Positions 162 to 46,675 of a stretch of 64,000 nucleotides of DNA are shown here, one piece after another. A program made the position numbers and the translations under genes. The notes under the pieces are model-generated. The model had not been told where the DNA came from. It worked only from the letters and a program-made list of their open reading frames with translations, and searched no databases. Source of the DNA: Candidatus Thorarchaeota archaeon (lineage in GTDB: Archaea; Asgardarchaeota; Thorarchaeia; Thorarchaeales; Thorarchaeaceae); contig JBHLRZ010000002.1 in assembly GCA_048882045.1 (NCBI GenBank), positions 128,001-192,000 of the forward strand. The letters run 5' to 3'. How positions within the stretch are numbered: position 1 is the first letter of the stretch; each line of letters starts with the position of its first letter.

Positions 162-968
162 TTGATCATGAGTTCAATGAACATGAAGCTCAGTTTCGCT
201 GATGAAGTGAAACAAAAAGCATTGGAAGTAGGTTTTGTGTCAGTTGGCATCGCTGATGTACACGCACTCAAGGATCTTCCGTATGGTTGGGTCGGGGAAG
301 TACGCGAATTGTACAGACCCGAGAATGAACTCCCAGGTGCAAAATCTGTAATCATGCTGGCATTCAACACTTGGGATCGAGCGTACAGTCTAAATGTTGA
401 ATCGTCGAGCTGGACAAACAATGGGGTTCAGCATCAAGACTCTAGATACGCTCACGGCAGCCTGGGCTACGAGGTGATGAAGAACAAGGCTTGGACCATT
501 GTTGAGTTTCTAAATGAGAGAGGATTCAAAGCGAGATGGTCATTAGGAATTCCTCTGAAGACAACAGCTGTTCTATGTGGTTTGGGGGCTCAAGGAAAGA
601 ACTCGCTTCTGATTACACCTGAATTCGGACCAAGGGTATTCTTGATAGCTGTTCTGACCTCTGCTTCTCTGACACCAGACAGTCCCTTTGAGGATGATCT
701 ATGCAAGAACTGTGATAGATGCATCAAGGTATGTCCTACTAGAGCAATTGAATCCTACAACCCCAGAATTGAACACTGTATGGTGTATCATTTAGAATGT
801 CCCGATTCCACAAACGTTCCTGACCATGTGAAAGAGAAATCAAGACAGCTCATCAAACGACCAACATCAAACAGCTATATCGAGTGTACAAGATGTGTAG
901 ATGTCTGCCCCATCGGGAAGGGACACGAAAGCAGTACTCAATATTCTCCCTTTCTCAATCTTGCCTGA
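162..968 (+). CDS. Epoxyqueuosine reductase / reductive dehalogenase-like Fe-S protein
   Basis: LPGAKSVI, GLGAQGKNSLLITPEFGPRV, CxxCxxCxxxCP and C-terminal CxxCxxxCP motifs. Confidence 0.75.
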   Translation: MIMSSMNMKLSFADEVKQKALEVGFVSVGIADVHALKDLPYGWVGEVRELYRPENELPGAKSVIMLAFNTWDRAYSLNVESSSWTNNGVQHQDSRYAHGSLGYEVMKNKAWTIVEFLNERGFKARWSLGIPLKTTAVLCGLGAQGKNSLLITPEFGPRVFLIAVLTSASLTPDSPFEDDLCKNCDRCIKVCPTRAIESYNPRIEHCMVYHLECPDSTNVPDHVKEKSRQLIKRPTSNSYIECTRCVDVCPIGKGHESSTQYSPFLNLA

Positions 969-1070
969 AAATCACTGGTAAGGTTCCGAAGTAAAGGTGG
1001 GATTGAGTGGTCACAAGTTTTCCAAGCTCACATTCGGCTCATAGTTCTTAGATGAAACAACAACTTTAAA

Positions 1071-1104
1071 TGTAAAGTTTACTTTACGTAAAGTGAACTT
1101 TACA
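1071..1104. promoter_or_regulatory. Double palindromic operator, two tandem GTAAAG-N4-CTTTAC units
   Basis: TGTAAAGTTTACTTTACGTAAAGTGAACTTTACA is a 34-bp near-perfect palindrome between a TTTAAA box and the HTH gene start. Confidence 0.8.
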
Positions 1105-1111
1105 TCACAAA

Positions 1112-1363
1112 GTGAGTGTGACTGATGTGATTGTCAACAGAATCAAGGAGCTTCGAGAACTAGAGATGTCGAAGGCATCCAATCATGACGATTGGACTCA
1201 AGAAGGCCTAGCACGTCGTTTGGGTGTCACACGTCAGACTATAATCTCCATCGAAAAGGGTACTTACAATCCTTCCCTTCTGCTTGCGTTCAAACTTTCA
1301 CGCATCTTTGAGATGAAAATTGAAGATATGTTCCAGTACAGAGATGATAAAGATGCAAACTGA
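1112..1363 (+). CDS. Cro/C1 (XRE) HTH transcriptional regulator
   Basis: TQEGLARRLGVTRQTIISIEKGTYNPSLLLAFKLS. Confidence 0.92.
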   Translation: MSVTDVIVNRIKELRELEMSKASNHDDWTQEGLARRLGVTRQTIISIEKGTYNPSLLLAFKLSRIFEMKIEDMFQYRDDKDAN

Positions 1364-1649
1364 AATGGGTGAAACCTTTCTGATGTTCTATGTAACACTT
1401 GGACTTGTTCTTTTGATCAATGCAGTCATTTTGCTATACATCAAGAGAATCCAAGATGAGCGCTATCTACAGATCTTGGGTTTGGGAGGTCGAAACGCGT
1501 TCGTCTTTGTGATGATTATTTTGCCAATAATAAGTGCGTTGCAATTCATGGGTCTTCCTTGGATAGTTCCAGGATTCTCAGTCTTTGTATTATGGATATC
1601 CTCATTCTTTGCTCTCTATGGTTCAAGTTACTATTACTACAGGAGTTAG
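1353..1649 (+). CDS. Small membrane protein, DUF2178-like (start uncertain)
   Basis: Three TM segments, DER motif, C-terminal YYYR; follows the XRE gene. Confidence 0.7.
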   Translation: MQTEMGETFLMFYVTLGLVLLINAVILLYIKRIQDERYLQILGLGGRNAFVFVMIILPIISALQFMGLPWIVPGFSVFVLWISSFFALYGSSYYYYRS

Positions 1650-8816: not shown

Positions 8817-9242
8817 TTGGAGATTTTCACAACTCTCGATGAAGCAAAGGAATCAGGCGGTTTCCTTGCACGTTGCGGCCACTTCCCCACAATATACAAA
8901 CGCTATGACAATGAGTACATTCTTGTCAGCAAGGGGGAGTGGCCTCCGAAGAAAGCATGGCCATTTCTCAAGTGGGATGGTGAAGACTGGCTTCCAGTCT
9001 TAGCAAGGATGGAAACTATAGAGGAAGCCTTTGAGGCCACTGGACTGTTTATACTGCTCGGACACAAACCACTGGTCGTTGAATTCCCAGGAATCACTTT
9101 TGATATCTTCTTGAAGGAGGCTCATGTACCCACTGGTGCTTGGATCATCAGTAAATCAGACCCCAACTTCTCAGTTAAATATCTCAAACCGCCGGACTTT
9201 GCCGCTGATGAAGACGAATCCATCGAGATACCTGTTCACTGA
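8817..9242 (+). CDS. Hypothetical protein with internal duplication
   Basis: TLDEAKESGGFLARCGHFP and TIEEAFEATGLFILLGHKP repeat units. Confidence 0.6.
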   Translation: MEIFTTLDEAKESGGFLARCGHFPTIYKRYDNEYILVSKGEWPPKKAWPFLKWDGEDWLPVLARMETIEEAFEATGLFILLGHKPLVVEFPGITFDIFLKEAHVPTGAWIISKSDPNFSVKYLKPPDFAADEDESIEIPVH

Positions 9243-16401: not shown

Positions 16402-16812
16402 CTACAGTCTGATTGGATTCGGTCCAATTTTTCGAATCTCGTCTGCGAACTTGTTAATCTCAGCAGCAAACTTGTCACCCTCAGCTGCAGACACGAAGAC
16501 CATCTTGACCCGGTCCTCATTAAGCCCCAACTGCCCGATCAGCTTCTTTGCAAACCTGACTCGCCTTTCTGCTCCAAGATTGCCTGTCTTAAAAGCACAA
16601 TCTCCAGGATGACATCCCACAACCAACACTCCGTCAGCCCCTTCCTGCAACGCTTTCAGAAGAAAGTTGATATCCAGTCTCGCTGTACATGGCATCCTGA
16701 TTATCCTGCTCGTGATGTCGTACTGCAGCTTCATTGTTCCCGCTAGGTCAGAGGCTGCATACATACATTGCATACAGCCAAACACGATGATATTCATATC
16801 CTTAGGAGGCAT
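16402..16812 (-). CDS. mvhD: Hydrogenase/Hdr [2Fe-2S] subunit MvhD
   Basis: GCMQCMYAASD, RMPCTAR, GADGVLVVGCHPGDC, GPNP. Confidence 0.93.
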   Translation of the reverse strand: MPPKDMNIIVFGCMQCMYAASDLAGTMKLQYDITSRIIRMPCTARLDINFLLKALQEGADGVLVVGCHPGDCAFKTGNLGAERRVRFAKKLIGQLGLNEDRVKMVFVSAAEGDKFAAEINKFADEIRKIGPNPIRL

Positions 16813-17009
16813 CTTTGATTCATTCACCCTGAGAGACGTGTATAAGCGAATTCGATGAGCCATATATTTCTTCAGTTACAATATCCTTTCAGTAAGATTA
16901 TCTTCTTAATCCACTCCAACTTTCAAAACACACACGAAAATCCATGAAATGGATACTAAATGTGCAACCACCCCAGGATTTATTAGCCTATGAATATTAA
17001 CTATAGTTT

Positions 17010-17231
17010 AGCCACTCAAGAAGTGAGTGATGACAAAGTCTGGGCCTTAAGTGCTGAGCAAGATCATGAACTCAACCAAGAATTATCTTGCGACAAACAC
17101 GGTACAGGGGCAGGTTGACAAACGGATGGACTGAGTGTCAAACTACCGGTTCGATGGTATAAGACGCGCTCAAGACAGTTCCTTCGAGTGAGAGAAATCG
17201 TACCATTGTCAAAACATATTCTTGGGTGGCT
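17010..17231 (+). ncRNA. Unassigned ~220-nt structured RNA candidate
   Basis: 13-bp terminal helix AGCCACTCAAGAA/TTCTTGGGTGGCT, three internal hairpins with G-U pairs favouring the + strand, TTTATTA box at 16979-16985. Confidence 0.65.
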
Positions 17232-17331
17232 TTCCTGCGTTTTGGATATCTATGCTTCTTGATTGAAACTACCACATCAGTACTCTGGTATTCTCCTGAG
17301 ATGACCTAAGTTGATGCATAGAGTTTCTGAT

Positions 17332-17985
17332 TTATGTTCCATCAAGGTGATTTGAGAATATTGTGCGAATCGTTTCAACAAGATTGTCTAGAGCTGAAAC
17401 TGGTTGTAGAACAGTGCCATCCAATAGATTCCTGTCAAGAGTACCTGTACCAATATTGGAAATTATGTAACCATCTCCTATCTGGAAAGTTGTGACATAT
17501 ATCCATGAACCATCAGTATAGGTGATTTCGATACCAAATCCGATGTGTGGACTGGACTCCAATATTATGGATGGTGCTATATCTGATGAGTAAGTAACAT
17601 TCAGTCCTTCATGAAGACTCAGACTGATATTCTCGATTTCCTCTGGGGCTACTGAGAATTCTCTCTCATAGATCTCTGGATTCTCCCAGCCTTCAGAATC
17701 ATCAACAAAACTGGCTGAAATCCTCCAGTCGCTTCCACTCACGACAAGAAAGGCTTCCATGAGTTCAGGATATAGAATGTCTGTGCTGTTCCCACATATC
17801 ATGAGTGATTCAATAATACTTGAATTTGGGGTACCTGGCCAGTTGGGGAAAGAAGAGATATAGATGAAAACAGTAGAGGATACTGCTACCACTAGGATAG
17901 TGGCCAGAGCGATTACTTTGGTACTCTCTTGGGACGTTTCAGACCCCTCCAACTGCAATATAACATTGTGTAAGAGTTGGTTCAT
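17332..17985 (-). CDS. Membrane-anchored/secreted hypothetical protein
   Basis: N-terminal TM helix followed by an acidic soluble domain. Confidence 0.65.
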   Translation of the reverse strand: MNQLLHNVILQLEGSETSQESTKVIALATILVVAVSSTVFIYISSFPNWPGTPNSSIIESLMICGNSTDILYPELMEAFLVVSGSDWRISASFVDDSEGWENPEIYEREFSVAPEEIENISLSLHEGLNVTYSSDIAPSIILESSPHIGFGIEITYTDGSWIYVTTFQIGDGYIISNIGTGTLDRNLLDGTVLQPVSALDNLVETIRTIFSNHLDGT

Positions 17986-18029: not shown

Positions 18030-18557
18030 TTACATACTAGACGAGATCTCACCTAGTATTTCGGGAACACCTATGTCCAAAGCATGAGTTAGACCATCCT
18101 TTGTGAAACGATAACCACTACCATCTTTACATTTCTCGAAATGACCTCTGTATGCCTCGAACTGCTTTCGTGAAGCTGTGAAGACCCTAGAAACTCGACC
18201 GCTATTGATTTTCCACTCATCAGCAATAGCTGTTGCTCCCATGCAGCGGTCGAAATTCTTCAACAGTGAAAGGATAACCATCTGATAGTCTCCCGTCAGA
18301 CCGACCTCACTGCGTTCACTATCAGAAAGACCGAAGAGATGTCTGGTTCTAGATTGGGCATCGTTCACCTCCCGAGTTACATCCCCCATCCACGAAAGCC
18401 TCTCCCTGTCTGATTCTAACTTTTCAATCTTCGAACAGATAGCATCAAGACGTCCATATGCTTGTCCAACACTTTCGTTCTCTCTTATTGTAACCCGGAC
18501 AGATATATTTCCAATTTTCCTCTCTAATTCAGTACCCTGAAGATTTTCATCATTCAT
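18030..18557 (-). CDS. Hypothetical protein, possible C-terminal winged HTH
   Basis: MGATAIADEWKINSGRVSRVF...GYRFTKDGL. Confidence 0.6.
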   Translation of the reverse strand: MNDENLQGTELERKIGNISVRVTIRENESVGQAYGRLDAICSKIEKLESDRERLSWMGDVTREVNDAQSRTRHLFGLSDSERSEVGLTGDYQMVILSLLKNFDRCMGATAIADEWKINSGRVSRVFTASRKQFEAYRGHFEKCKDGSGYRFTKDGLTHALDIGVPEILGEISSSM

Positions 18558-45817: not shown

Positions 45818-46675
45818 TTGACGCTGAGAGTTGCCATTCCTGATACTACCCTGACAGACTGCTCTGACCTACGTCAGAAGACTGTGAAATCCGGATCGAT
45901 TGCCAGGGCTCTAGCCATATTTCGGGTCAATCATGTCTTTATCTATGAAACCGGGACCCTGACTGGTAATAAGACACGGGATGCAGATTTGCTGATGAAG
46001 CTGCTCAGGTTCATGGACACACCACAGTATCTTCGAAAAAAGATATTCCCGAAATCTCCATCTCTAAAGTATGCAGGCATCCTTCCGCCTCTTAGGACAA
46101 AGAGTCATCCATTAGAACAGATGAAGTCTGATCTACATGAGGGAGTCGTGAGATGGGGGGTACAGGTCAGGCCAGGAAAGGTCGACCTTGGTCTCGATAA
46201 GCTAATCGACTATCCCCAGACCATCAGCGAACGAGACCCCACATTGTTCCGTGTGAAGAAGGCTTCGCCCAAAATCATCCTAGAGATAATCGATCGCGAG
46301 GATGTTGAAGAGTACTGGGGTTTCTCTGTTGAAAGGATTCGAGAACTACGTCTTCTGCTTGAGGCGGAAGACGATTCCACCAGGATTGGGTTCTCAAGAA
46401 AAGCGCCTCACTTTAATAGACTTGAAACTGATCTGAAATCAACCATTGCGGGGACACAATCAGTTCTGGCTATCTTTGGTGGTCCCGGACATGGCATTCT
46501 CGAAGTCTTTGAAGAGGAACGTGAAACCATCAAGTCAAACATTGACTTCTGGGTTAATACAATCCCTCATCAGGGTACTGAAACTGTTCGCCTTGATGAG
46601 GCACTATTCGTGAGTCTTGGAGTATTGAACAGTTCTCTGGGGCAGATGATGACGAAACCAGGTTTTCATGATTGA
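45818..46675 (+). CDS. SPOUT RNA methyltransferase (COG2106/DUF171)
   Basis: IARALAIFRV, TPQYLRK, AGILPPL, NTIPHQGTETVR. Confidence 0.9.
   Translation: MTLRVAIPDTTLTDCSDLRQKTVKSGSIARALAIFRVNHVFIYETGTLTGNKTRDADLLMKLLRFMDTPQYLRKKIFPKSPSLKYAGILPPLRTKSHPLEQMKSDLHEGVVRWGVQVRPGKVDLGLDKLIDYPQTISERDPTLFRVKKASPKIILEIIDREDVEEYWGFSVERIRELRLLLEAEDDSTRIGFSRKAPHFNRLETDLKSTIAGTQSVLAIFGGPGHGILEVFEEERETIKSNIDFWVNTIPHQGTETVRLDEALFVSLGVLNSSLGQMMTKPGFHD

Follow-up and report, generated by a model that had tools for sequence, protein, structure and literature searches.

A doubly pseudoknotted RNA of a new family in a Thorarchaeota-type genome and its recurrent link to a nuclease-fold protein

Apart from ribosomal RNAs, the signal recognition particle (SRP) RNA and RNase P RNA, few structured non-coding RNAs longer than 200 nt are known from archaea, and for Asgard archaea none was found in Rfam 15 or in the literature searched. 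Here we describe such an RNA from Candidatus Thorarchaeota archaeon (GenBank assembly GCA_048882045.1). It is encoded in a stretch of 64,000 nt (contig JBHLRZ010000002.1, positions 128,001–192,000), referred to below as the window, whose numbering is used throughout unless another contig or locus is named. The gene, at 17008–17231 on the plus strand, is a stand-alone structured-RNA gene with its own archaeal promoter and T-run, and its product of about 222 nt founds a new RNA family with a defined, doubly pseudoknotted fold. An earlier note on this DNA, made from the letters alone, had postulated an unassigned multi-helix RNA with its own promoter on this strand; that much holds, as the element is intergenic, matches no Rfam family and is preceded by a TATA-like box in all 58 related loci. 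The note had further proposed binding of L7Ae and a resemblance to long eukaryotic small nucleolar RNAs (snoRNAs), for which the outcome was different.

The first archaeal RNAs to be considered for comparison are the box C/D small RNAs (sRNAs) and other kink-turn (K-turn) RNAs that bind L7Ae. As in these, the ends of the window RNA form a terminal helix, and in most of its relatives tandem G·A pairs and a 3-nt bulge adjoin that helix. In contrast to box C/D sRNAs, which measure 50–70 nt, the window RNA has about 222 nt, and none of the boxes C, D, C' and D' is conserved in its family. It is also the 3' strand that carries the bulge, with the terminal helix on the non-canonical side, that is, in the opposite polarity. 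There is no CUGA near the 3' end of the window copy and no variable unpaired segment of 10–12 nt; nearly all of the RNA lies within covarying helices.

The SAM-I riboswitch (arm P2) and the c-di-GMP-II riboswitch contain pseudoknot arms assisted by K-turns. Their arms share with the two arms described below the succession of a helix, a sharp bend, a second helix and a hairpin loop that pairs with a strand at the arm's base. In the window RNA the bend is formed by a 1x8 loop flanked by a covarying G-C pair and is therefore not a K-turn. Unlike riboswitches, the RNA is a stand-alone transcript that matches no Rfam riboswitch. Type III toxin-antitoxin RNAs (ToxI) likewise consist of pseudoknotted, repeat-like modules beside a gene for a nuclease-type protein, but the window RNA combines two diverged modules in one closed molecule rather than a tandem array, and it differs in gene order, in having its own promoter and in the PD-(D/E)xK fold of the associated protein. 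The HEARO or omega-RNA of IscB and the reRNA of TnpB are also large structured RNAs genetically linked to nuclease-fold proteins. Unlike them, the present RNA carries a variable guide at neither end and is not flanked by transposon ends or repeats, and the protein linked to it is small and unrelated to IscB or TnpB. Transfer-messenger RNA (tmRNA), which is not known from archaea, likewise forms a pseudoknot ring that is closed where its two ends pair; the window RNA lacks a tRNA-like domain, a CCA end and a tag reading frame. The archaeal SRP and RNase P RNAs are comparable in size class and in being structured archaeal RNAs, but the window RNA has no similarity to either model.

The gene is located in an intergenic gap of 468 nt (16864–17331) between two minus-strand open reading frames (ORFs), one for an MvhD/FlpD-like protein (16402–16863) and the other for a 217-aa protein without a Pfam family (17332–17985). 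The TATA-like box TTTATTA, already pointed out in the earlier note, is found at 16979–16985 (+); TTTATTA or CTTAATAC stands at a constant spacing from the RNA start in 58 of 58 related loci. Since archaeal start sites usually follow at about 25 nt, transcription is predicted to start at about 17005–17010. Some 10 nt 5' of the TATA box lies a conserved motif, ATGTGCA...CCAGG (16960–16978, +), which is possibly a regulator-binding site, and a TGTGCA(N8–10)TCAGG-like sequence is kept upstream of the box in RNA copies that have no protein gene of the P241 family (described below) upstream. On the 3' side, the conserved tail UUCCUGCGUUUUGG with its T-run (17232–17245, +) appears to be the terminator, and the primary transcript probably ends in the T-run at 17240–17243; a T-rich tract follows the closing helix in nearly all of the 58 loci. 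In about half of the loci, including that in the window, a convergent gene lies only 20–100 nt beyond the RNA, which is therefore no 5' leader; at the window locus it does not stand upstream of, and co-oriented with, a gene that it could regulate.

The coding strand was fixed by the excess of G-U over A-C combinations in paired columns (330 versus 97 cells), in agreement with the argument from G-U pairs in the earlier note. Folding energy by itself says little and fails to distinguish the strands (z = -2.2 on the plus and -2.6 on the minus strand). The sequence is single-copy in the 3.6-Mb assembly, and ARAGORN detected neither tRNA nor tmRNA in the window. In a sediment metatranscriptome, a single contig of 164 nt (depth about 76) corresponds to 17093–17230 with two mismatches and with adapters on both sides; its 3' end coincides with the last base pair of the closing helix. 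The library gave no coverage on the flanking genes, and neither those flanks nor the remaining, uncovered part of the RNA carry any weight. A DNA run (X9) yielded no coverage of the locus, and another run (X12) covered part of the neighbouring gene only. The contig hints weakly at expression and at trimming of the 3' end. The metatranscriptome coverage that the note had proposed as a check was obtained for this part of the molecule only.

The fold was derived from alignment A5, in which 58 sequences were aligned to a covariance model (R1) built from copies found by BLAST; all pairs of columns were scanned, and pairs were then counted for an explicit pseudoknotted structure, with partner columns slid by 1–3 positions and with 500 shuffles as controls. 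Standard pairs occupy 91.1% of 3,833 cells, as opposed to 29–35% in the slid controls. Compensatory changes were seen at 61 of 68 pairs and in 629 cells (21–31 pairs and 62–92 cells in the slid controls), and none of the 500 shuffles equalled the observed pairing measures. R1 contains nested helices only, the alignment was fitted to those, and both pseudoknot helices are absent from it; the pseudoknots are nevertheless 97.5% and 87% paired although they were left out of the model.

The ends of the RNA are joined by the closing helix P1 (17010–17022/17219–17231). Its family-wide core (17010–17020/17221–17231) is paired in 98% of cells and shows compensatory changes in 7 of 11 pairs; the 5' strand occurs as GCCACUCAAG, GCCGUCUGAG or GGCCGUCGAG, each with a fitting 3' strand. 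Inside P1 follows helix P2 (UGACAA/UUGUCA, 17031–17036/17206–17211), 93% paired and covarying at all six pairs, which in relatives reads CGAUAG/CUAUCG, CGACAG/CUGUCG or CCAAUAG/CUGUUGG. The nearly invariant sequence AGUCUGGGC (17037–17045) comes next. In relatives it makes up the 3' side of H0, a possible 5' hairpin that emerges from folds of individual sequences in most subgroups, in differing registers, and is weak in the window copy. The loop of this tentative hairpin would hold the P2 strand.

Arm 1 (17049–17107) consists of an outer helix (17051–17056/17100–17105; 94.6% paired, 6 of 7 pairs covarying), a single A (17057), an inner helix (17058–17064/17085–17091; 93–97% paired) and the 8-nt loop GACAAACA on the 3' side (17092–17099). 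Its hairpin loop forms pseudoknot 1 (CAACC/GGUUG, 17073–17077/17113–17117), whose two strands change together between subgroups (CAACC/GGUUG, CAUUC/GAAUG, CAAUC/GAUUG). Arm 2 (17119–17190) is built in the same way, from an outer helix (17123–17133/17176–17186), a single A (17134), an inner helix (17135–17139/17163–17167) and the 8-nt 3' loop GCUCAAGA (17168–17175), with a small hairpin (17144–17147/17156–17159) within its loop; its helices are 80–93% paired, with compensatory changes at every pair. Pseudoknot 2 (GUUCGAU/AUCGUAC, 17149–17155/17197–17203) shows compensatory changes at all seven pairs and reads, for example, GUUCAAU/AUUGAAC in relatives.

Each arm, then, leads from an outer helix through an asymmetric 1x8 loop, with A opposite GAnnAAgA, to an inner helix whose hairpin loop is base-paired to the strand just 3' of that arm. 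The likeness of the two arms in layout and in loop sequence (yUG-A-G ... CGAnnAAgAC) suggests an internal duplication. Because the linker from the foot of an arm to its loop-pairing strand has only 5–6 nt, the geometry points to each arm folding back at its 1x8 loop, which would then act as a sharp hinge and make the RNA a compact, knotted particle. Three other assignments were tried and rejected. A K-turn in the arm loops (UG-A-G/GAnnAAGA) does not fit, as the G in question covaries as a Watson-Crick base (GC 49, AU 2 and UA 2 in arm 1; GC 30, AU 5 and UA 2 in arm 2) and the bulged strand has 8 nt; the G of the 8-nt strand is C or A in some subgroups. GUUCGAU resembles a T-loop but is a strand of the covarying pseudoknot 2. 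The pairing of GGUUGACA with UGUCAUAUC, which appeared in a first RNAalifold prediction, is contradicted by the family-wide covariation, which supports P2 and pseudoknot 1.

Three helices had been read correctly from the single sequence in the earlier note, namely P1, its TGACAA/TTGTCA extension, which is P2, and GCAAGAT/ATCTTGC, which corresponds to the inner helix of arm 1. Relatives do not retain the other pairings that it listed (CGGTA/TACCG, TTGACA/TGTCAA with a K-loop, ATGGTA/TACCAT and CGCTC/GAGTG). The same bases are instead engaged in the covarying helices GTGCTG/CGGTAC, GGACTG/CAGTTCC and GTGTC/GACGC and in the pseudoknots CAACC/GGTTG and GTTCGAT/ATCGTAC. In particular, in place of the K-loop hairpin TTGACA/TGTCAA, GUGUC pairs with GACGC or GACAC (three double changes among the 10 closest sequences), and GGUUG pairs with the loop of arm 1.

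In most relatives a further motif is situated beside P1. The 5' strand reads P1-GA-G-Y... or P1-AA-G-Y... and the 3' strand ...GGC-UUA-GA-P1, giving a helix closed by C=G, a UUA bulge, and G·A and A·(G/A) pairs stacked on P1. This pattern fits the K-turn consensus and is likely to mark a putative protein-binding site for P241, L7Ae or both; L7Ae binding is conceivable for the family as a whole. The window copy lacks the motif: at the place where relatives have GGCUUAGA or AUCUGAGA as the bulged strand, it has AAACAUA (17212–17218), without GA, and its closest relatives keep AUCUGAGA.

No described family accounts for this RNA, and it was found neither in Rfam 15 nor in the literature searched. 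Rfam scans of the locus with gathering cut-offs and with E ≤ 10 returned only noise, as did scans of eight diverse relatives at E ≤ 1; in the permissive scan of the locus, over 16800–17400, snoRNA models reached 12–21 bits (E ≥ 1), compared with cut-offs of 37–48 bits. The archaeal SRP RNA (RF01857) and RNase P RNA (RF00373) models had no match at 17008–17231, and both RNAs were found elsewhere in the genome, RNase P RNA at 75143–75483 of contig C1 (167 bits) and SRP RNA at 46113–46423 of contig C11 (80.5 bits). These two identities are therefore rejected, as the earlier note had anticipated; it had also set the RNA apart from a typical C/D guide, in keeping with the length of about 222 nt. 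The score of the SRP RNA is below the RF01857 gathering score of 96.5, which makes it a divergent Asgard SRP RNA of the kind missed by standard annotation.

Relatives were readily found within the order. Of 24 genomes from the genus, 9 contain copies of 73–79% identity that BLAST recovered. With R1, which scores the window RNA at 240.6 bits, full-length matches were obtained in 18 of 28 congeneric genomes and in 44 of the 87 from the order. A second covariance model, R2, built from a trimmed alignment of 57 sequences (184.9 bits for the window RNA), raised this to 49 of 87 genomes in 10 of 17 genera of the family, and the two models together give 58–65 full-length matches. The homologues and covariation that the earlier note had proposed to look for in Asgard genomes are thus present. 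When 151 genomes sampled evenly across the phylum were searched, matches were confined to the same family and to one genus (g34, three of three genomes) of a second family (f12), with none in 25 other families sampled; as far as sampled, the RNA family is restricted to one Thorarchaeota-type family and one genus of another. R2 matched none of 33 IMG/VR contigs that have a 14-mer in common with the RNA.

Many genomes carry two diverged paralogues. In one genome (G094) two copies lie in tandem on the same strand 1.4 kb apart (8992–9219 and 10602–10828 of contig C28, locus L251), with small ORFs between them, one of which has a DUF7347 domain. The group A copies, to which the window copy belongs, occupy a syntenic site across genera, among genes for MvhD, HD_3, cupin, acyl-CoA dehydrogenase and Hdr-like proteins. 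Group B copies are scattered among ordinary metabolic genes with no common theme and no mobile-element genes.

Among the neighbours of the RNA relatives a single gene recurs. It encodes a protein of about 241 aa, here designated P241 (for example, 734–1459, plus strand, in locus L043), and it stands directly upstream on the same strand (gap of about 42–130 nt) or divergently in 19 of the 58 loci first examined. P241 matched nothing in Pfam, NCBIfam or the sequences of the PDB. Its AlphaFold model (predicted local distance difference test score, pLDDT, 86) contains a PD-(D/E)xK nuclease-like core; its structural matches include XisH (the best, Z 9.6), SPO1766 (Z 9.1), AF1548, PaqCI and NucS, and Foldseek against the PDB returned only weak matches to nuclease folds. 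In the protein alignment (A6), D81, E117, E119 and K142 are invariant. A sequence search yielded 1,464 clusters from Thorarchaeota, Bathyarchaeota and Nitrososphaerota, and relatives by predicted structure are archaeal, mostly from Bathyarchaeota and Nitrososphaerota.

Within the order, P241 was found in 28 of 87 genomes. With unfiltered searches included, the RNA is present in all 23 genomes of the order that have a full-length or contig-truncated P241 match, usually adjacent to it. In the second family, the two adjoin each other in each of the three g34 genomes, where P241 is 50% identical. The window genome and most of its genus have no P241.

The association was also seen in metagenomic sequences, of which 80 P241 loci were scanned with R2. 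The two-arm RNA adjoins P241 in five of five loci whose P241 is 51–80% identical, and a sixth locus (49% identical) has a partial RNA match about 330 nt downstream. Divergently upstream of several P241 homologues of 40–45% identity, weak R2 matches turned out to be RNAs of 140–171 nt. This short class comprises at least 18 loci, for example 324–490 in L303, 1045–1207 in L306 and 978–1117 in L324 (all on the minus strand), besides about 15 more metagenomic loci. The short RNAs share their ends, that is P1, the motif and P2, with the Thorarchaeota RNA and differ in the core. Their P1 has 12–14 bp, every pair being standard, with compensatory variants such as GCCCAAGUUGAG versus UGCUUAAGCUGA; the 5' strand (A/G)AG(C/U)A(C/U)GCUU is accompanied by a covarying P2 and, on the 3' strand, by GGCUUAGA. 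In one variant there is a single arm, with a UGAG...CGAUAAAGAC loop. Three Bathyarchaeota-type P241 loci gave no RNA match with R1; the short class surfaced with R2, in other loci. Matches to GGTTCAGA downstream of Bathyarchaeota-type P241 genes were discarded, being coding sequence of the next HD gene and not RNA.

Taken as a whole, these data are best explained by a real knotted-RNA gene of a new family whose product would be a protein-bound structural RNA, the window copy being an orphan; we consider this explanation slightly better than an even bet. That the RNA acts in trans in this protein-bound form, with P241 as the ancestral partner, is a narrower proposal to which we give somewhat less than even chances. 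The K-turn-like motif of the relatives would be the docking site for P241, L7Ae or both. The window genome would have lost P241 and its RNA the motif, while the knotted core, the promoter and the terminator were kept, leaving an orphan that either has a role independent of P241 or is in slow decay.

Several observations weigh against this account. The RNA is missing from about 40% of the searched genomes, some of them 97–99% complete, and as genomes of such completeness can do without it, the RNA is accessory rather than a housekeeping RNA. Many genomes have the RNA and no P241, among them the window genome and most of its genus (g1), and many P241 homologues, such as those of the NMO-P212-HD loci, have no detectable RNA. 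The partnership may accordingly be facultative, or the adjacency may be no more than inherited gene order. The K-turn reading is a sequence pattern whose C-helix has 2–4 pairs and competes with the possible 5' hairpin in some subgroups. Expression is indicated by one contig, which could represent copies of one molecule or DNA carry-over.

A more specific version, that the RNA and P241 form an unrecognised archaeal ribonucleoprotein (RNP) in which the RNA serves as cofactor, regulator or inhibitor of the nuclease-fold protein, is held here only tentatively, as a possibility that we think will more probably prove wrong than right. The terminal domain (P1, the GGCUUAGA motif and P2) would be conserved and the core exchangeable, consisting of two pseudoknotted arms in Thorarchaeota and of other folds elsewhere, and the window copy would again be an orphan. 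Such an RNP would be old, common to Thorarchaeota-type Asgard archaea and the lineages nearest to Bathyarchaeota.

By analogy with type III toxin-antitoxin systems, the RNA could be an inhibitor or antitoxin of P241, kept in the window genome as protection or as a leftover. Its pseudoknotted, repeat-like modules adjoin a nuclease-fold gene, and the co-occurrence is asymmetric: the RNA alone is common, yet full-length P241 in genomes of the order is always accompanied by the RNA, and genomes that have P241 fragments only (G092 and G093) are without it. This reading is nonetheless unlikely. Many distant P241 homologues have no RNA nearby, P241 is not known to be toxic, and the RNA gene stands after the protein gene or divergently from it, not in front of it in the form of a repeat array. 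The surrounding genes have ordinary metabolic functions and do not make up mobile or defence islands, and the group A copies remain at one syntenic chromosomal site across genera.

We give little credence to the view that the window gene is a decaying relic without present function. It is the most divergent member of group A (240.6 bits, compared with 243.6–294.5 for the others), it has lost the motif beside P1, its 5' hairpin is weak and its genome has no P241. P1 and P2 are intact, however, as are the two arms and the two pseudoknots; the promoter and T-run are retained, and a near-identical sequence occurs in an RNA library.

A riboswitch-like RNA that senses a ligand or an ion, whether it controls a downstream gene in cis or works in trans, is improbable. 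The tandem look-alike arms, each with a bent helix and a pseudoknot, resemble SAM-I P2 and the c-di-GMP-II aptamers in design, and some loci have a co-oriented HD_3 or Bmp/PnrA gene downstream. Against this reading stand the convergent gene that comes right after the RNA at about half of the loci, the window's among them, the terminator-like T-run directly after P1 and the lack of a common family among downstream genes.

The model of the earlier note, an L7Ae-binding RNA with a C/D-like K-loop (CGGAUGG-A-CUGA) and box C/D elements, similar to long snoRNAs, now appears very improbable. In its favour are GUGAUGA (17027–17033) and two CUGA sequences in the window copy, weak matches to snoRNA models (E 1–6) and the K-turn-like motif beside P1 in most relatives. 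The box C, GTGATGA, does exist here, but it is private to the window copy and unconserved even in the closest relatives, where the site reads CAGATGA; other subgroups have CACGATAG (CACGAUAG as RNA). The CTGA sequences at 17054 and 17131 are conserved, yet not as boxes: they supply the 5' strand, yUG-A-G, of the two arm loops, and their G covaries as part of a Watson-Crick pair. The K-loop hairpin is supplanted by covarying long-range helices, there is no variable guide segment, and the motif of the family has a polarity opposite to that of a terminal C/D motif and is absent from the window copy. With snoRNA scores as low as those in the permissive scan, nothing links the RNA to long eukaryotic snoRNAs.

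A ribozyme or self-processing RNA is just as hard to credit: the compact, multiply pseudoknotted fold with invariant unpaired purines would suit one, and the RNA-library fragment begins at 17093, within the conserved GACAAACA loop, but no Rfam ribozyme family matches and a single fragment end is no evidence of cleavage. That the locus holds no RNA gene at all, only a miniature inverted-repeat transposable element (MITE) or another kind of repeat, a fold arising by chance or a gene for a small protein, can practically be dismissed: folding z-scores of only about -2 on both strands and an overlapping 42-aa ORF (16990–17118) are outweighed by massive compensatory covariation, by the presence in each genome of a single copy, or of no more than two diverged paralogues, without repeats (the dispersed MITE copies that the earlier note had seen as the danger to its proposal were not found, the window genome having a single copy), and by an ORF start upstream of the predicted transcription start together with frequent indels in the alignment.

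Two observations on the surroundings remain to be mentioned. Neither the 217-aa protein encoded next to the RNA gene (17332–17985, -) nor the 175-aa protein encoded beyond it (18030–18557, -) belongs to a Pfam or NCBIfam family, and the former was found again beside the RNA in eight loci, on either side of it. The only Rfam match of the window at gathering score is a full-length eL15-Euryarchaeota leader (RF03144, 10880–10925, +, 53.9 bits), which in a Thorarchaeota-type genome lies outside the lineage that names the family.

The RNA has no direct bearing on the origin of eukaryotes, as its likeness to snoRNAs fails. What the locus offers is a well-determined and unusual fold with dozens of covarying members and a repeated link to an uncharacterised family of nuclease-fold proteins. 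Being small and knotted, the RNA is a good target for structure determination, and its link to P241 provides a joint handle on the roles of both the protein and the RNA.

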